From Abditibacteriaceae bacterium (GTDB taxonomy: Bacteria > Armatimonadota > Abditibacteriia > Abditibacteriales > Abditibacteriaceae), in NCBI GenBank assembly GCA_031425655.1, contig JANPJS010000135.1:1-18331 (forward strand): a stretch of 18,331 bases of DNA. The letters run 5' to 3'. The first letter of the stretch is position 1; each line of letters opens with the position of its first letter. Below are positions 2,220 to 11,500 of the stretch, piece after piece. A program made the position numbers and the translations under genes. The notes beneath the pieces were generated by a model that saw only the letters and a list, made by a program, of their open reading frames with translations, did not search any database and was not told where the DNA came from.

Positions 2220-2704
2220 AGGCGCCCGGCACGCCGGTTTACCTGCTCGATGCCAACGTGTTGCTTCGTCTGGCGCAGTCCGCGCACCCGCAACACGTCA
2301 CGGCGCGCACCGCGTTGCACGTCCTGCGAAACAGCAGCGCGCAGCTCGTGACAGCGCCGCAAAGCCTCTATGAATTCTGGGCGGTGGCGACAAGGCCAGC
2401 CATAGCGTGCGGCGGGCTGGGAATGCCGGGGCCGGGCGCCTTAGCCTATGTGAATCTCTTCACCGGCATTTCCCGCCATTGGGTGAGGTGCCGGTCTATA
2501 CACAGTGGAGGCGCCTCACACAGTGGAGGCGCCTCGTGACCAACTACGGCGTGGTCGGCCTGAACACTCACGACGCACGGTTAACGGCCTGTGCGCTGGC
2601 TCACGGCGTCACGCATTGTGCTGACGTTCAACAAGAAGGATTTCAACCGCTACACGCCAGAAGGCATTACAGTAGTAGAACCGGCCAGCATAACCGCACA
2701 ATGA
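2216..2704 (+). pseudogene. vapC: PIN-domain (VapC-family) toxin with two frameshifts and an 18-bp duplication
   Basis: Across three frames: YLLDANVLLR ... PQSLYEFWAVATRP ... GGLG / WRRLVTNYGVVGLNTHDARLTACALAHGVTH / VLTFNKKDFNRY. Shifts occur near 2470 and 2615. Confidence 0.85.
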
Positions 2705-2722
2705 GCAGAGGACACAACAAAT

Positions 2723-2782
2723 CGGACTTTCAAAATTCTAAATACTTGGACTTTTGAGTATCTGAAATTTCAAAAACACAAA
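2723..2782 (+). repeat. Phased degenerate 8-bp repeat array upstream of parA (centromere/operator-like)
   Basis: CGGACTTT CAAAATTC TAAATACT TGGACTTT TGAGTATC TGAAATTT CAAAAACA, running up to the parA ATG. Confidence 0.7.
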
Positions 2783-3406
2783 ATGATAATTACGATTGCG
2801 GCCTTTAAAGGTGGAGTGGGGAAAACCACAACGGCGGTGCATATGGCGACTTATCTGCAACAAAAAGCACCAACGCTTCTTATTGATGGTGACCCAAACC
2901 GCAGCGCAACAGGATGGGCCAAACGCGGCAACGGTAACCATGCCCTACCCTTTCGCGTCGTTGACGAACGCCAAGCGGCGCGCTACGTTCGCGATTACGA
3001 ACACGTTGTCATTGATACTCAAGCGAGGCCGTCGCGCGAAGATTTGGAGGCGTTAAGCGATGGATGCGACTTGCTAATTTTGCCCTCCACACCGGACGCT
3101 TTGGCACTTGATGCTTTGTTACAAACCGTGGACGAATTGCAGGCGCTAAAAGCCGACCGCTACCGAATCCTTCTGACCATGATTCCACCGAAGCCAAGCC
3201 GCGACGGGGAAGAAGCGAACAATACTTTGCAGGACGCAGGGCTGCCACTATTCTCCACCATGATCCGCCGATTGGTAGCTTTCCAAAAAGCTGCGCTCGC
3301 GGGACTACCTGTCAATGCGGTGGCCGATCCACGCGCCGCTATAGGCTGGGATGAGTATTGCCGTGTCGGTCAGGAGATAGAGCAGAGGGGGAAACCGAGT
3401 GAGTAA
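2783..3406 (+). CDS. parA: ParA/ParF-type plasmid partition ATPase (short type Ib, no N-terminal HTH)
   Basis: Deviant Walker A KGGVGKTT at the N-terminus, A' LIDGDPN and Walker B VVIDT; 207 aa. Confidence 0.95.
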   Translation: MIITIAAFKGGVGKTTTAVHMATYLQQKAPTLLIDGDPNRSATGWAKRGNGNHALPFRVVDERQAARYVRDYEHVVIDTQARPSREDLEALSDGCDLLILPSTPDALALDALLQTVDELQALKADRYRILLTMIPPKPSRDGEEANNTLQDAGLPLFSTMIRRLVAFQKAALAGLPVNAVADPRAAIGWDEYCRVGQEIEQRGKPSE

Positions 3407-3686
3407 ATTTTCCGCAGTGTTGGCAGCTAAACGCGAGACGCAAGATTATCAGGTGCCAGACGGGAAAGCACCCACAGACACCTCGTTAGCAGGCGACGGA
3501 CGCAGGCGTGGCAGGCCCAATGCGAAGCGCAGCGACCCCATGTTTGTGCAAACGACTGCCTACATTCGCAAAGAGACTCTACGCGAAACAAAAAGGGCGC
3601 TTTTGGAGTTGGAAGACGAAAACAAACGCGACTTCTCAGAACTGGTGGAGGAATTACTTTCGACGTGGCTGAAAGAAAAACGTTAG
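3399..3686 (+). CDS. Small partition adaptor / centromere-binding protein (ParG-like, probable ribbon-helix-helix)
   Basis: Overlaps the parA stop; 95 aa. A flexible N-terminus (MSKF...) is followed by QTTAYIRKETLRETKRALL...DFSELVEELLSTWL, a strand-helix-helix pattern. Confidence 0.75.
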   Translation: MSKFSAVLAAKRETQDYQVPDGKAPTDTSLAGDGRRRGRPNAKRSDPMFVQTTAYIRKETLRETKRALLELEDENKRDFSELVEELLSTWLKEKR

Positions 3687-3771
3687 ATATTTGAAATTTT
3701 AGATATTCACATTTTTGAATATCTAAAATTATGGGTATTCAGTTATTCAGACATTTAAGTATCTGAAATTA
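3684..3771 (+). repeat. Second phased 8-bp repeat array, 11 units (parS/parH-like)
   Basis: TAGATATT TGAAATTT TAGATATT CACATTTT TGAATATC TAAAATTA TGGGTATT CAGTTATT CAGACATT TAAGTATC TGAAATTA. It shares AGTATCTGAAATT with the upstream array. Confidence 0.75.
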
Positions 3772-3785
3772 ACTGGGAGAGAATC

Positions 3786-4937
3786 GTGTTGAACATGAGC
3801 GAATCGAAGCAGGAGCCAACCAGAAAACGCAAACAGCGGGAAGAATACGGTATTTCAACTTCGCAGGAAGCTGACGCCATCATGCGGGCGGCCAGTGACG
3901 GCAAGAGTGGGCGTCATTGGGAAACCCTTCTTGGTGCCGATGCACGTATTCACCAAGCGCCGGGCGCATCACATTATGTTCGTCTTGTCCTAACGGATGG
4001 AGAACGACAGATGGGTGTGCCAGTAGATGCACTGGAATCCGCTACGCTGCGTTGCGATGCCGACGACGATTTCATGCTGCTTTACATTTCGCGGCTCTTG
4101 ACGCCAGCGCAGCCCCTTGCGCCGGGGACATTACCGTATGCTACGGTGCAGCTTGACGATGTTATAAAAGCGATTGGCTGGTATCCGCAGAACACCCGAC
4201 AGCGGGGCGATATGCGCGAAAGGGTTTGGCAGTTCATTAAGTTCGTATCCCGCGCCCATATCGTCGGGCAACGCACTTATAAGCAACGTGACTCCTTGAC
4301 AGGTGAGGAACTGGATACTTATATGGATTCGCCACCGTGGATGCTGGGCGGCAGGCAGCGCGAAGAAGTGCCACAGCCGTCATTGTTCGACGATGACAAG
4401 GCTCCGCTCAGTATCGAAATCACGGCAACTCCGATGTGGACAAGACTTACTGCCTTACCTGACACGGCACAATTTCTACCGCTTGGCGAAGTGTTGGGTA
4501 TCATTCCCGGTGGTAAACCCGCTGGTGCTTGGGCGCGTGTCATCGGTCTGGCACTTTCTAACTTTTGGAGACGCCATCCCCGCGAGTCTATGAGCGGCAC
4601 CCTAAAGCCAACCCGTCGGGAATTATTGGAACGCTACACGCCTGCGACTGGCAGTGTTATCGAGTTCCTGAGTAGCCCAAACGCATCGCGCGCCGTGCAG
4701 TATTGGGCTGGTGCATTACGTATCCTCGTGGAGTGTGATTTCGTAGCAGATACGGGAGAAGCCGCTATCCCTTACGAGCAACAGCGCGATACTCTGCCGC
4801 TACGTGGCTGGCAAGAAGACTGGTTGAATGGCTGTGTCGAATTGCAACCGGGCACTGCAATTATTGAAGTGATCAAAGAACGAGCGAAGGCGTTGCCTAT
4901 CCCTACCGTAAGCACAAGGCGAAAAAGAAAACTGTGA
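3786..4937 (+). CDS. Hypothetical protein, putative plasmid replication initiator
   Basis: Intact 383-aa ORF with a GGGAGA SD and no motif I recognise. The function is inferred from its position between the par locus and the iterons/helicase/primase. The start could be ATG 3795. Confidence 0.6.
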   Translation: MLNMSESKQEPTRKRKQREEYGISTSQEADAIMRAASDGKSGRHWETLLGADARIHQAPGASHYVRLVLTDGERQMGVPVDALESATLRCDADDDFMLLYISRLLTPAQPLAPGTLPYATVQLDDVIKAIGWYPQNTRQRGDMRERVWQFIKFVSRAHIVGQRTYKQRDSLTGEELDTYMDSPPWMLGGRQREEVPQPSLFDDDKAPLSIEITATPMWTRLTALPDTAQFLPLGEVLGIIPGGKPAGAWARVIGLALSNFWRRHPRESMSGTLKPTRRELLERYTPATGSVIEFLSSPNASRAVQYWAGALRILVECDFVADTGEAAIPYEQQRDTLPLRGWQEDWLNGCVELQPGTAIIEVIKERAKALPIPTVSTRRKRKL

Positions 4938-5040
4938 GATAAAGATAAAGAACTGTGAGTTCGACGTAAAAAACTGTGAGATAGACATAAAGAACTGTGA
5001 GTTGATGAGTTCAAATGCTCTCCCAATAAACAATAACAAT
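4930..5040 (+). repeat. Iteron array and AT-rich patch (putative replication origin)
   Basis: AACTGTGAG occurs at 4930, 4951, 4972 and 4993, an exact 21-bp period, followed by CAATAAACAATAACAAT near 5024-5040. Confidence 0.8.
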
Positions 5041-5162
5041 GGCGCCGTTCGCTGCTGACGCCGCGCGGCGTATGTTGTCCCGCTCCGCGAACCAGACCAC
5101 GACGGAGCACTCCGCAGTGCCGCACGCATTGGAAGAGATTAAAAGAGAAAGGTAATTTAGCC

Positions 5163-6113
5163 ATGAACAACCCGGTCAGCGAACACGCGCGCAACGGCTA
5201 CAACGCAGACGAACCCTACACGCCGAACACTAATGGTAGCGTCCCACACGCCGAGCCGAAAGCGCAAGCCACACTCATGCGCTTTGCCGACGCGCTCGAC
5301 GGGGCCGTTGCCGATGCCGCCGCCGCCCACGAAGCGCGATTGACCGGCAAGCCGCGCGGCCCGGTGACCAACTTCCCCAAGCTCGACAAAGAACTGGGTG
5401 GCGCCTTCGCCCCCGGCGTTCATGCCATCCACGGCGACCCCGGCGCCGGAAAAACTTCCTTCGCCTTGCAAGTGGCTACGACCTGCCAGTTTCCGGCGCT
5501 TTTCGTGACGGCGGAGATGGCTCCGGCAGAATTGCTTCGCCGACAAGCGGCGCGTGTCACCTCCACTTATTTAGGCCGCTTCAAGTCTGGGGAAATGCCC
5601 CCGGCAGAAGTTCGCGGGCTTTTGCTGCGCGGCATCGAAGCGGCGCCGCAATTCGCCTTGCTGGATGCCACGCGCGAACCGGCCAGCCCGCTGTTCATTC
5701 GGGACTGCGCTGCGATTATCAAGGGCAATGCGCCCAATCTCCTGATCGTGATTGATTCGCTGCACAGTTGGGCCGAAGGCAACGCCAATGGCAATGAATA
5801 TGAAGTCCTAAACGAAGCGATTGCGGCTTTGCGACGTTTGTCTTCGTTGCTGGACTGTCCCGTGGTTTACATCGCTGAGCGCAACCGGCTGAGCATGGGT
5901 AAGGACGGCCAATCGTCGGGCGCGGGATCGCGCAAAATCGAATACGGTGCGGAAACGGTCATCAGTCTGAACCGCGCTGCCGATGCCAGACCAGACGTTA
6001 GCGGCAACGTCCCAGTCATGCTGAAACTTCCCAAGAACCGTCATGGTGTGCCGGGCGTTGAAGTGCGCTTGAGTTTCAATGGCGCGCTGCAACGCTTCAG
6101 CGAAGACCATTAG
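5163..6113 (+). CDS. DnaB-like (SF4) helicase, C-terminal ATPase domain only
   Basis: TNFPKLDKELGG, Walker A GDPGAGKT, H1a FVTAEM, Walker B LIVIDSL, GSRKIEYGAE and H4 KNRHG. SD AAAGGT. Confidence 0.9.
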   Translation: MNNPVSEHARNGYNADEPYTPNTNGSVPHAEPKAQATLMRFADALDGAVADAAAAHEARLTGKPRGPVTNFPKLDKELGGAFAPGVHAIHGDPGAGKTSFALQVATTCQFPALFVTAEMAPAELLRRQAARVTSTYLGRFKSGEMPPAEVRGLLLRGIEAAPQFALLDATREPASPLFIRDCAAIIKGNAPNLLIVIDSLHSWAEGNANGNEYEVLNEAIAALRRLSSLLDCPVVYIAERNRLSMGKDGQSSGAGSRKIEYGAETVISLNRAADARPDVSGNVPVMLKLPKNRHGVPGVEVRLSFNGALQRFSEDH

Positions 6114-6131
6114 AAAACCACTAAAGGGGCT

Positions 6132-7226
6132 GTGGTGGACAGTTCAGGCAAATCCTTATCGCTGGCCGACCTTGAAGCCTACGACGGCCAGTCCGCCGGG
6201 CGCGGCGTGGAACGGCGCTTCCTGTGCCCGTATTGCGGTGATGCCAAGCCTCGCAACAGCGCGCACCGTAGCATGGCGGCCAACATGGACACGGGCGCCT
6301 ATAACTGCCACCGCTGCAAAGTCAAAGGCAAGCTCAGCGAGTGGTGGACAGACCGTCCGTTGACCTCGCCGCGCACGGCACAGAGCGCCCGCTTGCGCCG
6401 CGCCTTTGCGGTTGAGCCGATAGCTTCGCCAACCTCCACCGATTCGGATTGGCGCAAACGGCTCGAAAACCTCATCCCGCTGGATAGTCCGGAGGCGCAG
6501 GTCGGAGCAAAATATCTGGCCGGGCGTGGCATTTCTGTGGAAATCGCCGCGTTATCCGGCGCACAGTTTTGCCGTTCTTGGTATGGTGATCCGGCGATTG
6601 TTTTTCCGCTTTACGATGAAGCAGGCGCGCTGACAGCGGGGCAGGGTAGGGCGATCTTCAACGATAAGAAGCTGATTGCCGGGCCAAAGTCCAACGGCGT
6701 CTTCACCGCGCACGCCAGAGCCGAGAATGGCGATGTTCAGCACGCCATAGACGGCCAGCAGCGCGTGATGGTGACGGAAGCACCCATAGATGCCTTGAGC
6801 CTCGCTTGCTGCGGCTTCCCCGCCGTGGCACTGTGCGGCACATCGTTTCCGGCGTGGTTTCACCGCAAGTGCGGTTTGCGCCGTGTCATGCTGGCCACCG
6901 ATGCGGATGAAGCCGGTGATGCGGCGGCGGTGACACTGGCGGCGATGTTGGCGCGTTACGGCGCTAAGTGCGAACGCTTGCGTCCTATTGGAGCTAAAGA
7001 CTGGAATGCAATGCTACTGGCCTCTGGATTGAGGACGCTGCGTGATTACATTGAGGCGTGTGTCCTGCCTCCACCGCTTCCCGTGCCGAACACGGCGCGC
7101 ACGGCCTATGATGCGCGCTATGCCATTGAATTTGCGTTGGGCGACGAACGACTGCTGCCGGATCAGCGCGCTCGTCTTTTGGATATTGCCCACCAGTTGA
7201 TAGAAGCGAACCGGGTGAAGGCATGA
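6132..7226 (+). CDS. Zinc-finger plus TOPRIM DNA primase-like protein
   Basis: CPYC...H...YNCHRC zinc-binding motif, YLAGRGIS, IVFPLYD, and TOPRIM TEAPIDALS, LATDADEAG and KDWN. Confidence 0.88.
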   Translation: MVDSSGKSLSLADLEAYDGQSAGRGVERRFLCPYCGDAKPRNSAHRSMAANMDTGAYNCHRCKVKGKLSEWWTDRPLTSPRTAQSARLRRAFAVEPIASPTSTDSDWRKRLENLIPLDSPEAQVGAKYLAGRGISVEIAALSGAQFCRSWYGDPAIVFPLYDEAGALTAGQGRAIFNDKKLIAGPKSNGVFTAHARAENGDVQHAIDGQQRVMVTEAPIDALSLACCGFPAVALCGTSFPAWFHRKCGLRRVMLATDADEAGDAAAVTLAAMLARYGAKCERLRPIGAKDWNAMLLASGLRTLRDYIEACVLPPPLPVPNTARTAYDARYAIEFALGDERLLPDQRARLLDIAHQLIEANRVKA

Positions 7227-7297
7227 TATACACCACGAAGTAATCGTTACGGGCGTTCAACCGCCGGGCTATGTAGAAATTGAAAACGAGGCACAAA

Positions 7298-7618
7298 ATG
7301 AATCAAGTCCCGATCAACTGAGCAACAGAGGGCAAGACGCCAGAATCGCCGGAATCGCTGGCGGCCAAACCGAACGGCCAGATGCAACTCAGCCCGTTCG
7401 CGCAGATGATTCTGCGCGATACGAAGGAAATACAGCCGAAGCTGGTCAAGGCGCTGCTGAGAAGTAACGAATTATTGCCGCGCCTGATGGAGTTGGACAA
7501 GGCGGCAGCCCCGTATTATCTGGCGCTGGTGGGAGCGGGAGTGGACACACATGAAGCCCTCAAGCTGACGGCGCAAAATTACCGACTGGGCAAACCAGCA
7601 ACAGACTCGGTGCTTTGA
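7298..7618 (+). pseudogene. Hypothetical protein with a probable premature stop at codon 8 (or a 78-aa CDS from 7382)
   Basis: GAGG SD and ATG 7298 (MNQVPIN*), TGA at 7319-7321, then the same frame stays open through the 7382..7618 ORF. Confidence 0.45.
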
Positions 7619-7889
7619 GGCCCGCGCACAATCTACCGTAAACAGCTTTTCCCAGATCACCCAGGTAAGACGCAGAATTGAAATATGAAAACACTCGAAG
7701 ACGCAATCGCGCTGGCGGCGCTGGCGCACAAGGGCCAAGTAGATAAGGCCGGAGAAGCCTACATCTGCCACCCACTGCGGTTGATGCTGACCATGACGAG
7801 CGAAGCCGAGCGCATGGTGGCTGTTCTGCATGATGCTGTGGAAGACACGCATGTTACGCTGGACGCCCTCGAAACGGGAGACTATCTAT

Positions 7890-8099
7890 CTTTCCGGTAT
7901 GGGTTTTTGAAAAACAGGCGTCAAAAAGCCCCGAAATGTGAAAAACAGAAGCGATGTCATCCTGAGCTTGCGAAGGATCTCTGCGTAATACGAGCTATTT
8001 TGCAGAGATTCTTCGCAAGCTCAGGATGACAAAACTCTCACTTTTTGCTATCTACTCGTATGCTTTCCAAGCCCTTTTTCCAAAACCCATACCGGAAAG
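7890..8099. mobile_element. 210-bp non-autonomous MITE with an 11-bp target duplication
   Basis: Terminal IRs CTTTCCGGTATGGGTTTT and AAAACCCATACCGGAAAG (18 bp perfect), flanked by AGACTATCTAT at 7879-7889 and 8100-8110. The boundary is ambiguous by 1 bp at each side. Confidence 0.92.
7955..8031. repeat. REP-like 30-bp-stem palindrome inside the MITE
   Basis: TGTCATCCTGAGCTTGCGAAGGATCTCTGC and GCAGAGATTCTTCGCAAGCTCAGGATGACA pair at 29/30 positions plus one G-T, with a 17-nt loop. Confidence 0.85.
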
Positions 8100-9433
8100 A
8101 GACTATCTATCCCAGGTTATAGCGGCGGTCGCAGTGCTGACGCATGAGCCGGGCGTGCCTTACATGGATTATGTGCGCTGCATCGGAAGCAACGTGCTCG
8201 CGCGAAAAGTCAAAATGGCTGACCTTAAAGACAATATGAACTTGAGTCGTATCTCGGCTCCGACGGCTAAAGACTATGCCCGGATCGAGAAGTATCAAAC
8301 GGCATTGGCGCTTTTAGAGAGTGCCCCATGATGCGCGCAGGTTTGCACCTCTTGCTGGTTGCCAGTGAGGTGGAGATTGGCGAAGTCGAGTCACTGGCCA
8401 ATGGGCCACAACCGAAGCGACCACGACGGGGAGCCAACGCCGGATAGTTCGTCGTTTGCCACGCTGGTATTTGTCAAACTGCGTCAAACAAGGATTATAA
8501 TTGTTGATACCTAATTTAGTTTTATTGCTTGTCGGGGATGAACCGCTTCGATAGCGTGTTTCCCTATATTCCGTAAGGCTTTTCGGGGATTTTGGCGACG
8601 GCGCAAGCAGCGCATTTGATCAAACTAAAACGCACTTCGCGCGTGTAGCGGCGTGCCTTAATTCGAGTTCCTTTATAGCTCAATCAAGCGTTGAATTCGA
8701 CCTGCCGAGTTAACTTGTCACAATAGAAAATTCAACTATCAAGCTTGTCTCAAAATGTGGGATGGTTTTGAACTAGCCAGATTGACTTCCACTTGTGACA
8801 AGTTGATTTCCGCTTCCGTAGAATTTGTTCACTAAACAGAGTTAGCGCAAAATAATCTGTGGCTGAGCAGGGTAGGGCCGTATTCGCCTGTTTATCCTGT
8901 GACACCCGATGGCCAGACAACCAGACAAGGCTCTGTTACGGATTCGGTGCGGAGTTATGGGCGGAGTATGCCGGGCACGGCTACTGGTAATGCACCAGCT
9001 AAGAGTGTGTCCACGACCTCCTGCGTGTGGGCTGACACGGTGACCGAGCGCACGCTAAGTGCCCACTTATTCGGTTATCCGGCGCCGAATTCGCCGCGAA
9101 AATCGCCGTTCCTCGCTGGGCTGAGGGTTTGGCCTGTCCGACTTCCTTCATGCTTCCTTCATGTTACCTACGTGCAAATATCGGCGGGCTTGCATTGCAA
9201 CAGCTTACAGCCTTTCGAGCGTCACTGCCCTAACCGAATTCCATTGGCCGCTTTGGACAAGTCCCAGACTCGTGTTTCAATTTCCGTGCTGGGTCGGTTA
9301 ATCACGGTCTCCGGGAATAATTAGCGCCGATGCGCAGAAAGTTGATCGCATTCTCCACCCCTGTGGGAATAGTTCCTGCATTCTTTAAAGATAGCCCTCA
9401 AGGGCCAAACTTGATTGATCAGGAAGTGTTTCA

Positions 9434-9755
9434 ATGCAGAAGTCAGTTTTGGGAATCGCCGTTTTGACAGTAACCGCTATCGGTGGCATGGTGGGCACGA
9501 GCCAAGTGGCTCACAGCAAGATCGCAATCCCGGTGATAGTCGGAGCAACCACCTCAGCACGGTTGTAAAGGGCGGCGTGGCCGGTATGTGCGGCTGCGGC
9601 ACGACACCGGCACCGGCACGCGTTGACGTTAAGCCGGGCTATGGCTTTGGCACCACGGGGCACTATGGTCCTCCGGGACAAGGCTTCAAGCCCACAAAAA
9701 CATGGCGTCAAACCGTCGCTGCGGGCGGCACCACCACACCCAAAGGCGGCAACTG
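9434..9755 (+). pseudogene. Putative secreted Gly/Thr/Pro-rich protein, frameshifted and truncated by miniature transposons
   Basis: AGGAAG SD then a signal-peptide-like MQKSVLGIAVLTVTAIGGMVGTSQVAHS, with a stop at 9568. A -1 shift near 9555 continues into STVVKGGVAGMCGCG...PKGGN up to the element edge. Confidence 0.45.
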
Positions 9756-10023
9756 GGGGTAGACCCAACAGTCGTGTCACCAGCCGCCACTTGGACTTTT
9801 CACGGCCTTTTTGTGATTGACCTGTCGGAAAACAGATGTTTTGCGACAAAATGCTGTCCCCTGCTGCTATCCCAAATCAGTCATCAAATAGCGAACGGAA
9901 AGCCCTGTCGCCAACCCAAACATACGGAAACCGAGGTTTTGATGTTTTCCGTATACGCTAAACATTGATTTGCTGCTACCCATTCTAAATGGCGGCTGGT
10001 GACACGACTGTTGGGTCTACCCC
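9756..10023. mobile_element. 268-bp Tn3-family-derived miniature element with internal res-like sites
   Basis: 34-bp perfect IR GGGGTAGACCCAACAGTCGTGTCACCAGCCGCCA (38/40 overall). 5-bp target duplication AACTG at 9751-9755 and 10024-10028. Confidence 0.92.
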
Positions 10024-10027
10024 AACT

Positions 10028-10277
10028 GGGGTAGTAGCCTCAATCGAGAGAAAAACCGGGTTAAGGATTTAAGAAGCGGCAGAAAAGCGAGTAGTAGTGG
10101 GGCCGTCGGAGGGAAAAGTGCATAGAATCAGGTTACAGCGCATTCTTTCGTCTTAATTTATCCTCCCGTCGAGATAGATAGGACTGTCAAATCAAGAAAA
10201 AGCCCTAAAAGGGCGTGGTCATTGCTCGAAAACGCACTTCTTAACGCGGTTTTTCTCTCGATTGAGGTTACTACCCG
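10028..10277. mobile_element. Second, 250-bp Tn3-family-derived miniature element
   Basis: 38-bp IR GGGGTAGTAGCCTCAATCGAGAGAAAAACCGGGTTAAG (10028-10065) matches 10240-10277 at 35/38, in the GGGG...TAAG form. No target duplication. Confidence 0.85.
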
Positions 10278-10464
10278 TATCCGGCGGTTTATGAGAAAAT
10301 CGAAGCCTATTGAAACTGTCACAAGGGGCGTTCAATCAAGTTCAGCTCCGCCATACAGGAAGAGAAACCGCTCGAAATTGGGCGAACTGCGACGAAATCG
10401 GCTGTGCAACGCATAGTGGCATCGATCATGCAGCAAGTGAGAATAAGCAGCAAAGGAGAAGGCT

Positions 10465-10821
10465 ATGAAACACAACCGATGGATTGCTTTGGCTCTGTTA
10501 GTCGTTTTCGGTGCCACAATGATAGTGGGGCCGCTGGTTGGCACAGCTCAGGCCAGCAGCAAGGGGCGGCGTAACACCGCTATTGCTCTGGGTGCCGTAA
10601 CAGCTTACGGTTTGCTCAAAAAGAAAAAGACGGTAGCCATCGTAGGCGGTCTGGGCACACTTTATGCTTACAAGCGTTATCGTGACGCTAAGAAGGCCGA
10701 GCAACGCGGTCGCACGGTTAGTCAGGTGTTTGGTGGTCGGGCAGTTTACGATAGTAATGGCAACCGCTATAGCCCCAGCAGTCGTTACTACGCCAACCGC
10801 ACCTACTACAGGCACCGATAA
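10465..10821 (+). CDS. Small basic secreted/membrane hypothetical protein
   Basis: Strong SD AAGGAG, a signal-peptide-like N-terminus ending AQA, two short hydrophobic Gly/Ala segments, a Tyr/Arg-rich tail, and a terminator downstream. Confidence 0.8.
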   Translation: MKHNRWIALALLVVFGATMIVGPLVGTAQASSKGRRNTAIALGAVTAYGLLKKKKTVAIVGGLGTLYAYKRYRDAKKAEQRGRTVSQVFGGRAVYDSNGNRYSPSSRYYANRTYYRHR

Positions 10822-10844
10822 TCGGTAGAGCAAAGTAGTGAAAG

Positions 10845-10881
10845 AAAAGCACCGACATCTTGATTGATGTCGGTGCTTTTT
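10845..10881. terminator. Bidirectional rho-independent terminator
   Basis: AAAAGCACCGACATC-TTGATT-GATGTCGGTGCTTTT, 24 nt after the stop codon, between convergent genes. A second 11-bp hairpin lies at 10893-10918. Confidence 0.85.
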
Positions 10882-11086
10882 GCTTTAAGGGGATGCCACA
10901 TCGCCGCCGATGTGGCATGGCGCGGCGCTCGCTGTGACAGTTAAAATGCAGTCATTAAGGGTAGTTCCAAAAACGACGGTTCATGAGAATTCTAAGGCAT
11001 TTGAAATTGGCACAACCGTCATTCAATCAGTTCAATAGCAGTAGAACGCGGCACAAAATGGACTACTATCAGGTTGAACCTCTGTT

Positions 11087-11293
11087 TCAGCTGTCCCCAT
11101 TAGCGGGTGAAGTCCACAGGATGAAGGGCACCCAAATCAAGAGAATTAGGATTGGCACGACGATAGGAGAGACGTGTAAATATTGACTCAGTGGCCACGC
11201 AAGTGCTGGTGTTACCATAAGCAGAGCATAAGGCCATACAGAGTGGCTTGAATGTTTAACTGGATTGTCCATCGTATCTTGTTTCTCTTTCAC
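11087..11293 (-). CDS. Small two-helix membrane protein (hypothetical)
   Basis: GAGGTG SD before GTG, and two hydrophobic segments (VWPYALLMVTPALAW and IVVPILILLIWVPFILW). Confidence 0.55.
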   Translation of the reverse strand: MKEKQDTMDNPVKHSSHSVWPYALLMVTPALAWPLSQYLHVSPIVVPILILLIWVPFILWTSPANGDS

Positions 11294-11474
11294 TTGTCAC
11301 CTCAACTCAAAAAGATTATAACACGCAGCCAATTTTGCACACCGAATAGCGAGCTTGATAGTTGTTCCCAAATTGCGACAGGTTGAAGTGTGTAGATTCT
11401 ATGGTTTACGTCAAGGGCACGGCGACGGTTTGGAGCCGTTTTGTTGGTAAACGCGGTCGGGGTTGTAGGTTAGT

Positions 11475-11500
11475 CCACCACAAACGTCCGTTTGTGAGGA
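11475..11500 (-). other. hix/res site I-like recombination site (left copy)
   Basis: CCACCACAAAC-GTCC-GTTTGTGAGGA. Bases 11482-11498 are the exact reverse complement of 13921-13937. Confidence 0.65.

Follow-up and report, generated by a model that had tools for sequence, protein, structure and literature searches.

A probable plasmid maintenance core that joins a partition cassette to an iteron replicon with its own helicase and primase in an Abditibacteriaceae-type bacterium

We analysed the whole of an 18,331-bp contig from a metagenomic genome of an Abditibacteriaceae bacterium (contig C135 of that genome, referred to here as the window) and found that the block at positions 2723-7226 is probably the plasmid maintenance core of an Abditibacteriaceae-type bacterium, in which a type Ib-style partition (par) system is joined to an iteron replicon that most likely replicates by the theta mode. 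The block represents a real and previously undescribed plasmid replicon family, a variant on iteron theta replicons and on the self-sufficiency of IncQ-like plasmids. A sequence-only reading of the window had proposed a replicon type without an earlier description, and this proposal held: a literature search found nothing on this replicon family or on plasmid replication in Abditibacteriota, and the initiator has no family in Pfam, NCBIfam or PHROGs. The five intact, co-oriented genes on which that reading was built are all open and all on the plus strand. What we established is the gene content, the folds, the repeats, their conservation, the synteny and the carriage of the module by a complete plasmid and by small circles. 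The parts of the block, in order along the window, are as follows.

2752-2769, no strand: centromere-like repeat and palindrome TTGAGTATCTGAAATT (pattern match at 2754-2769; palindrome I1 at 2752-2783)
2783-3406, plus strand: parA, 207 aa, small Walker-type ATPase without an N-terminal helix-turn-helix (HTH)
3399-3686, plus strand: partition adaptor, 95 aa, GTG start, 8-nt overlap with the parA stop
3683-3770, no strand: four 16-nt centromere-like repeats of the TTAGATATTTGAAATT family (D2), between the adaptor gene and rep
3786-4937, plus strand: rep, 383 aa, predicted tandem winged-helix (WH1-WH2) initiator with a basic C-terminal tail
4928-5003, no strand: four iterons, core AAAACTGTGAG / AGAACTGTGAG, with an exact 21-bp period (4928, 4949, 4970 and 4991)
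5004-5041, no strand: spacer, TCAAA box and A+T-rich tandem-hexamer tract ATAAACAATAACAAT (5026-5040), a candidate DNA-unwinding element
5042-5071, no strand: G+C-rich stem-loop directly after the hexamer box, its pairing conserved across the family
5163-6113, plus strand: helicase, 316 aa, superfamily 4 (SF4), DnaB linker helix and RecA-like C-terminal domain
6132-7226, plus strand: primase, 364 aa, C4 zinc ribbon, TOPRIM domain and 60-aa helical tail

A complete plasmid, a set of circular contigs and a concatemer that carry the module act as natural mini-replicons. The plasmid, pIAD-21, is a complete circular molecule of 102,890 bp from a cultured Abditibacteriota strain. It carries, in the same order as the window, ParA (73% identity), the adaptor (a 150-aa protein at the same position, 48% identical over the C-terminal 67 aa of the window adaptor), Rep (46%), 21-bp iterons and the helicase (49%); its record annotates all four module genes as 'hypothetical' and gives no replicon type. 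Seven metagenome contigs of 5,650-11,717 bp (L090, L092, L094, L097, L098, L108 and L111) have terminal direct overlaps of 86-127 nt, and we read them as circular because such overlaps are the usual mark of a circular assembly. Among their 79 open reading frames (ORFs), the sole recognisable replication genes are rep, helicase and primase, with the primase missing from L098; the other genes encode PIN or ParE toxins, HTH_17 proteins, endonuclease VII, a tyrosine integrase and a methylase/GmrSD pair. No capsid, terminase, portal or relaxase domain was found in these 79 ORFs. Finally, a 15,762-bp contig of a related genome (L051; G125:C7, 1-15762) consists of 2.18 tandem copies of a 7,229-bp unit, of which the first two are 100% identical. 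The unit encodes a Rep of 588 aa, a helicase of 332 aa, a primase of 362 aa, a PIN protein, an HTH_17 protein and small ORFs, and the contig is probably a small plasmid assembled as a concatemer.

Two further observations concern the small elements. An HTH_17 gene lies directly upstream of their rep. The circle L108 carries the tyrosine integrase together with excisionase-like HTH_17 genes, an EcoRI-type methylase and a GmrSD nuclease; given its integrase and excisionase-like genes, some family members may be integrative.

To describe the family beyond these molecules, we scored 90 loci (L002-L014 and L055-L131; 13 from species-representative genomes, 1 from viral contigs and 76 from metagenomes) by tblastn with the five window proteins, keeping near-duplicates in the counts. 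The order rep, iterons, helicase and primase recurred widely among them, including on the complete plasmid and the small circular contigs. When at least 1.5 kb of sequence was available downstream of rep, 51 of 62 loci had the helicase as the following gene in the same orientation and 11 did not; when at least 3 kb was available, the helicase was found in 39 of 47 loci and helicase plus primase in 32 of 47. The Rep profile matched 21 of 401 sampled genomes of the window's phylum (the window's own included) and 12 of the 26 other genomes in its own family, with matching loci in Abditibacterium, Abditibacteriaceae, Armatimonadales and Chthonomonadales. Of 72,556 plasmid records, pIAD-21 alone was matched by Rep and by the helicase (E ≤1e-10); the primase had one weak match elsewhere.

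At the edge of the family, two loci from Actinomycetota and Blastocatellia bins (L013 and L014) encode a distant Rep (29-30% identity) with no helicase adjoining, and in place of the 21-bp iterons they have 8-13 copies of a 7-bp tandem repeat after rep. Rep homologues were also seen in the chromosomes of two closed or nearly closed genomes (L052, on G084:C1 of ~7.07 Mb; L053, on G059:C1 of ~3.19 Mb). One of these genomes is that of the pIAD-21 host; in the other, rep is split and a primase lies upstream. These chromosomal copies may be integrated or decaying.

The initiator had been called unknown, which was correct at the level of sequence and not at the level of fold. When 40 Rep members were compared with Pfam at E ≤1, 0 of 40 matched an initiator family (6 of 40 had a weak AT-hook match), and a profile built from the same 40 members found nothing among PDB sequences at E ≤10. 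An AlphaFold2 (AF2) model made from the 40-row alignment had a mean predicted local distance difference test (pLDDT) score of 90 and a predicted template modelling (pTM) score of 0.87. Aligned with VIA-align, this model matched domains 2-3 of RctB with Z 11.8 (254 residues aligned) and the pi-iteron complex with Z 10.7 (222 aligned), the next chain scoring 6.6; Foldseek likewise placed RctB domains 2-3 first (1.4e-3), followed by RepE54, pi and pPS10 RepA. As modelled, Rep is thus a tandem winged-helix iteron initiator, with the WH1-WH2 fold of pi, RepE and RctB, and not a new kind of protein.

The sequence family itself is large. A word-indexed search returned 133 proteins at E ≤0.001, and the 120 matches listed bore no name other than 'hypothetical protein' and had no precomputed Pfam domain. 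Searched against 1.84 billion proteins clustered at 50% identity, the 40-member profile matched 607 cluster representatives at E ≤0.001, including 336 at E ≤1e-30. Judged by these sequence comparisons, Rep defines a new initiator family that curated libraries miss. Most of the 150 relatives listed are 450-660 aa long and have an N-terminal extension of 100-280 residues that matches nothing in Pfam. The window Rep has no such extension, and this short form (~380 aa) accompanies ParA and larger contigs. A phage origin of Rep was considered and set aside, there being no match to it in 50,697 phage records. A prediction of the Rep-helicase complex gave a score of 0.00, which counts neither for nor against binding.

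Directly downstream of rep lies the predicted origin. Iterons had been noted there, with the origin placed between rep and the helicase gene, and both points proved sound. The first iteron of the 21-bp phased array overlaps the rep stop codon. Allowing at most one mismatch, AAAACTGTGAG occurs five times in the window, four of them phased at 21 bp, compared with 0.28 expected, and none of 200 shuffles reached five. Three or more repeats spaced exactly 21 bp apart were found in the rep-helicase gap of 53 of 56 distinct helicase-bearing loci, the window included. An AAAACT-type iteron core is common to the loci and the flanking bases differ from locus to locus, as expected if the iteron site co-evolves with its Rep. 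After the last iteron comes a short box with the consensus CACGCTCAAAAC across loci, which is weak in the window. The tandem-hexamer tract follows; a regular expression for its (ATAACA)2-type box found it in 55 of 81 loci and missed the window, in which the first unit is one base longer.

At the same position in loci from L005 to L125, which is to say in nearly all family members, the (ATAACA)2 box is followed by a 13-bp hairpin. In a 48-locus alignment, the 13 pairs of the structure, which we drew by hand, were 81.5% paired, compared with 35-45% when the 3' partners were slid by 1-3 columns; RNAalifold recovered only the inner 4 pairs, with outlier rows misaligned. Compensatory changes were found at all 13 pairs, and cells in which both partners had changed numbered 68, compared with 22.6 ± 4.0 in shuffles, none of 500 of which reached 68. 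Because the pairing is kept and the sequence is not, these data favour a structure that forms when the nucleic acid is single-stranded over a palindrome to which a protein binds. The hairpin might act as a signal for single-strand priming or helicase loading, or be linked to the promoter of the helicase-primase operon. This is the one covarying hairpin that we found, no systematic search for a second hairpin resembling a single-strand initiation (ssi) site having been made. The loop of the 13-bp hairpin is often TTGNC(A/G), which resembles a -35 hexamer. Several small elements have a second hairpin just before the helicase start, which by eye appears to include the ribosome-binding site.

The helicase, as the sequence-only reading maintained, has no DnaB N-terminal domain. 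Its Pfam match is to DnaB_C only, beginning at residue 69 (residues 69-313, 1.6e-16), with no DnaB N-terminal domain in Pfam, and it aligns to TIGR00665 at positions 146-432, so that its first residues fall about 145 positions into that model of DnaB. In its AF2 model (pLDDT 85.9), residues 1-24 are disordered, a long helix spans residues 41-61 and a RecA-type core follows. The top Foldseek match was the E. coli DnaB C-terminal construct 6kza_B (3.4e-17), the G40P ATPase domain (3bh0) matched with a TM score of 0.77 on target length, and all 24 rows listed (ranks to 48) were DnaB or SPP1 G40P. On the basis of the model and these matches, the protein appears to be a DnaB C-terminal domain with the linker helix and without the collar. 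IncQ RepA, considered as the nearest fold, was not among the 24 rows. Read by eye, the RecA-like C-terminal domain has Walker A (GDPGAGKT), Walker B and an arginine finger, as well as a KNRHG motif. Homologues number at least 555; among the 120 listed, lengths are 278-412 aa, mostly ~300 aa, and identity to the window protein is 51-94%. Separate dnaB (301 bits) and dnaG (421 bits) genes are present elsewhere in the host bin, on other contigs, so the helicase and primase in the window are accessory copies.

The primase gene starts 18 nt after the helicase stop. It had been assigned to the zinc-ribbon/TOPRIM type rather than to the archaeo-eukaryotic primase (AEP)-like type of IncQ, and this assignment is borne out by matches to Toprim_2 (3.8e-13) and phrog_47 'DNA primase' (6e-35), by the C4 zinc-ribbon motif (CPYC-x24-CHRC) and by the acidic TOPRIM motifs (E...DADEAGD). 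The protein scored 38 bits against the dnaG model TIGR01391 (model positions 202-358), for which the cut-off is 283.6. Its nearest phage matches are primases of the T4 gp61 type, at 23-27% identity and E ~1e-8, and its PDB matches are weak (E 0.0015-0.007) and include the T4 primase zinc domain and DnaG catalytic cores. Residues 300-364 contain no Pfam domain, and since tblastn matches in relatives mostly stop near residue 312, the tail is poorly conserved.

In L004 (pIAD-21), L011 and L067, the helicase is 410-460 aa long, with an extra N-terminal region of ~100-145 residues, and no primase adjoins it; these three loci also have the short Rep and a ParA upstream. Where a primase adjoins, the helicase is 288-396 aa long, in most cases under 345. 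This distribution hints that the N-terminal extension takes the place of the dedicated primase, the docking of host DnaG being one possible way.

Upstream of rep, the partition genes and their repeats form a coherent block with the replicon in the window. The sequence-only reading had attached a par system to the replicon, which is right for the window and does not hold for the family, in which parA is no fixed part of the module. ParA of at least 48% identity lies upstream in 3 of 90 loci and a weaker ParA (27-32%) in 9 more, and the small circular relatives show no ParA. The window ParA matches CbiA (6.9e-16) and phrog_164 (2.8e-37), has a KGGVGKT motif (read by eye) and an ATPase domain that begins at residue 2, and scored 1.7e-28 and 99.6 bits against NCBIfam ParA_partition, under its 180-bit cut-off. 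As read from the 8-nt overlap, the adaptor gene is translationally coupled to parA. The adaptor has no family in Pfam, NCBIfam or PHROGs and no PDB sequence match. Its basic N-terminal tail is probably disordered, and its C terminus shows a strand-helix-helix pattern by eye. The C terminus is likely to be ribbon-helix-helix-like; the sole tool support for this is a language-model neighbourhood, in which protein-atlas clusters named 'CopG family' (0.95) and Antitox_RHH (0.91) are among the nearest, as leads only. It is from the par genes alone that a low copy number would follow.

The putative centromere lies on both sides of the par operon. Its 16-mers gave four pattern matches in the window compared with 0.06 expected, and none of 200 shuffles reached four; three of these matches lie in 3683-3770 and one at 2754-2769, and a repeat search added a fourth copy to the former stretch, at 3699-3714. 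The AT-rich repeats at 3683-3770 contain a perfect 15-nt inverted repeat (I2), and the repeat at 2752-2769 is probably also the par operator and promoter region. On pIAD-21, arrays of a related motif, GATATTTGAA, with 8-bp phasing flank the par operon on both sides, and L011 also has arrays on both sides, with a different motif. That two-sided arrays recur, each with its own motif, fits a centromere co-evolving with its binding protein.

These results suggest how the block might work, although we infer all of the binding and loading, the mode of replication, the copy number and any independence from the DnaB and DnaG of the host. ParA and the 95-aa adaptor would be translated as a coupled pair, and the adaptor would bind the flanking 16-nt repeats, serving both segregation and auto-repression. 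Rep, as a protein of the pi/RepE/RctB structural class, would bind the four 21-bp iterons, spaced by two helical turns, downstream of its own gene, and open the adjoining A+T-rich (ATAACA)2 tract. It may then load the plasmid's own collar-less DnaB-type helicase with no recruitment of host DnaB. The zinc-ribbon TOPRIM primase, which resembles those of T4 (gp61) and T7 and is encoded in the same operon, would form a two-gene primosome with the helicase. The hairpin by the unwinding tract would be part of the origin, most likely a priming or loading signal once it is single-stranded; alternatively, it may be linked to the helicase-primase promoter. In its most general form, the proposal is of a large theta family, with the window block as its first recognised member, in which the winged-helix initiator is hard-wired to a loader-free, collar-less helicase and a gp61-like primase (a 'split, reversed gp4'), with a fixed origin grammar of 21-bp iterons, (ATAACA)2 unwinding box and hairpin, the hairpin as primosome entry or priming signal, and a start that needs none of host DnaA, DnaB, DnaC/DciA or DnaG. 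We advance this wider version tentatively, as a possibility that we do not favour outright.

Several known systems resemble parts of the module. Rep shares its tandem winged-helix fold, over nearly its whole length, with pi of R6K (2nra), RepE of F, pPS10 RepA and domains 2-3 of RctB of Vibrio chromosome 2 (5ubf), and as with those initiators there are iterons beside the gene, here putative binding sites, and then an A+T-rich tract. Unlike them, the window Rep has no detectable sequence similarity to the class, and a dedicated helicase follows the origin, in the 51 of 62 loci counted above; classical plasmids with winged-helix initiators rely on host DnaB and DnaG. The helicase and primase recall the primosomes of T4 (gp41-gp61) and T7 (gp4), in which a DnaB-family helicase is paired with a C4 zinc-ribbon and TOPRIM primase, and here too the two genes are tightly coupled, 18 nt apart in the window and overlapping in L108 and L051. 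The phage systems differ in that identity to them is 23-27%, that the window helicase lacks the N-terminal domain and that the enzymes here accompany a plasmid-type initiator and iterons. Compared with T7 gp4, the window has separate genes in the order helicase then primase, the reverse of the fused protein. The par cassette resembles the type Ib systems ParF-ParG of TP228 and par2 of pB171 in its small ParA without a DNA-binding N terminus, its small basic-tailed adaptor with a likely ribbon-helix-helix C terminus and its arrays upstream and downstream of the operon; par2 of pB171 has centromeres on both sides of its operon. It differs in that the adaptor belongs to no family and its fold is a language-model lead only, and in that ParA falls under the NCBIfam cut-off. 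A RepE-like gene beside a fused DnaG-DnaB protein has been reported once, on the integrated element DesKuz-E1 (Gadelle et al. 2014, PMC4117785), so an initiator of this class alongside enzymes of this kind is not unprecedented. The same description sets DesKuz-E1 apart from the window, in that its primase and helicase are fused and lie on a large integrated conjugative element (PMC4117785).

The closest functional parallel to weigh is IncQ. Plasmids RSF1010 and R1162 encode the initiator RepC, the helicase RepA and the AEP-like primase RepB', which act at oriV; the RSF1010 oriV carries ssi sites, and IncQ uses two hairpins, on opposite strands. Like IncQ, the window has its own initiator, a collar-less SF4 helicase (collar-less here by domain search and model) and a primase, and in both direct iterons are followed by an A+T-rich tract and then a hairpin. 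The resemblance does not extend to the proteins: the window initiator and 39 relatives match no Pfam initiator family at E ≤1, RepC included, the primase is of the zinc-ribbon/TOPRIM type in place of the AEP-like RepB', and the helicase is a homologue of the DnaB C-terminal domain. Nor is the layout the same, since the order here is rep, origin, helicase and primase, one conserved hairpin was found and a par cassette is attached.

It is therefore reasonable to ask whether the block replicates by IncQ-style strand displacement, in which Rep would open the origin, the plasmid helicase would unwind it, the primase would prime once per strand at hairpins and both strands would be copied continuously without lagging-strand synthesis. 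A plasmid-encoded trio of initiator, helicase and primase is the textbook signature of strand-displacement plasmids (PMC7858055). Many family members are small circles of 5.6-11.7 kb, as would suit this mode, and the order of iterons, A+T tract and conserved hairpin resembles the RSF1010 oriV with its ssi sites. We nevertheless consider strand displacement, the main rival to our account, unlikely. Only one conserved hairpin was found, no systematic search for a second having been made, compared with the two of IncQ; a DnaB-type helicase with a DnaG/gp61-type primase is machinery for repeated lagging-strand priming; and the helicase folds like the DnaB C-terminal domain, with IncQ RepA absent among the Foldseek rows listed. 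The partition system in the window is typical of low-copy theta plasmids. A 102.9-kb plasmid, and several loci that lie on 70-160-kb contigs, are also hard to square with long single-stranded intermediates, and a family member of 103 kb, unlike IncQ, points to theta replication. The enzymes of the DnaB/gp61 type, the one hairpin found, the par cassette and this large member all speak for theta replication instead.

Two other explanations would deny that the block is a working plasmid core. It may be a stranded relic, a former plasmid module that in this organism is now part of the chromosome, or of an element in decay, and has ceased to be a replicon. The broken immediate neighbours, the fragments of the insertion sequences (IS) IS1 and IS3 around the block, the unclosed contig, a truncated rep on another contig (C179) of the same genome and the related reps inside chromosomes (G084:C1 and G059:C1, the latter split) all fit such a relic. 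Yet the five genes are open and the catalytic motifs, the four iterons and the par repeats are all intact; decay around an intact core would be the outcome of selection for plasmid maintenance functions; and a 94% identical helicase on another 16-kb contig indicates that the lineage is current. We judge the relic explanation improbable. The block could also be the replication module of a phage, a phage-plasmid or an integrative satellite, as might be suggested by a primase nearest to T4-type gp61, by the PHROG matches of both enzymes, by the L108 circle with its tyrosine integrase and excisionase-like genes and by one relative on a 139-kb contig of a viral collection. This we regard as very improbable: Rep is unmatched among the phage records, a single viral-contig locus stands against 76 metagenome and 13 genome loci, the 79 ORFs of the seven circular relatives showed no capsid, terminase or portal domain, the one cultured example is annotated as a plasmid and the window has a partition cassette.

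A plasmid maintenance core with a theta replicon remains our preferred account, and several points weigh against it. We infer replicon status, host and copy number, because the contig is unclosed, ends in IS fragments and comes from a metagenome bin of 327 contigs. To our knowledge, an N-terminally truncated DnaB has not been described as a competent helicase on its own, and helicase activity is assumed here because the motifs are intact and the family is large. In the loci with at least 3 kb of flank, the helicase has no adjoining primase in L002, L004 (pIAD-21), L011, L067, L098, L099 and L121, and in 8 of 47 there is no helicase next to rep; given these loci, the trio is not obligatory, and in some members host DnaG or DnaB can evidently do the work. 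The A+T tract of the window is short, the best 30-nt stretch after the last iteron being 0.70 A+T. The window hairpin, folded as single-stranded DNA, has an energy of -10 kcal/mol and z -0.39, no more stable than shuffles. Across the family, the percentage of paired positions is inflated, and the double-change counts less so, because the structure was drawn from the same sequences.

The module provides a first sequence-defined replicon type for plasmids of Abditibacteriota/Armatimonadota, a host group of little-studied soil and sediment bacteria, and the new initiator family could be added to plasmid-typing and annotation pipelines. The pairing of a pi/RepE-class initiator with a collar-less helicase makes it testable how a DnaB-type ring loads without a loader or an N-terminal domain, and likewise how a primase docks on a collar-less DnaB-type helicase. 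The natural circles of 5.6-11.7 kb suggest a compact cassette for vectors in uncultivated or genetically intractable groups. Should the host-independent start be true, the module could also form the backbone of broad-host-range vectors for soil bacteria that are hard to manipulate, those of the Armatimonadota type among them.

The contig does not overlap itself at its ends, and its G+C content is 54.5%, compared with 56.7% for the genome, a bin of 5.98 Mb that is 97% complete. Most neighbours of the block had been described as pseudogenes. This stands for the immediate neighbours, both of which are broken, and for the IS1 and IS3 pieces around the block, which are partial; it does not stand for four larger, more distant genes that look whole, encoding a BNR protein (397 aa), a resolvase (191 aa), a DUF6785/6784 protein (736 aa) and an esterase (322 aa). 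On the upstream side, a PIN/VapC ORF at 1892-2539 matches the first part of its profile only, the remainder being read in other frames. Within this broken gene lies a perfect 18-bp tandem duplication (2500-2535), one copy of which is absent from one contig of sediment run X2. On the downstream side, an HD phosphohydrolase is split into two overlapping ORFs (7685-8029 and 8026-8331) that match consecutive parts of phrog_990. The summed contig depth over 7957-8568 is ~7x that of its neighbours in run X1, so part of this region is repeated or common to other organisms. When 72 stop-to-stop frames of the flanking DNA were compared with Pfam, the only additions were IS1 pieces and two ORFs, one with an HTH_3 domain and one with a glycine zipper; 8300-11500 may be decayed DNA or DNA without a recognised match.

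No Rfam family reached its gathering score in the window. A scan of 2500-7700 for sigma-70 promoters and terminators gave 5 promoter-like sites compared with 2.7 expected, and nothing among them was usable as a helicase-primase promoter. The second rep of the same genome, on C179 at 5261-5677 (L054), is 51% identical to the window Rep over residues 3-134 and ends after ~135 codons; an excisionase-like HTH gene precedes it and unrelated DNA follows, so that it has the look of a small-element rep that has decayed. The host dnaB, on contig C119 at 6945-9020 (L015 and L017), matches DnaB_C in two pieces (profile positions 1-39 and 31-255) that lie ~1.2 kb apart inside one open frame of 909 codons, the pattern of an intein-bearing DnaB.

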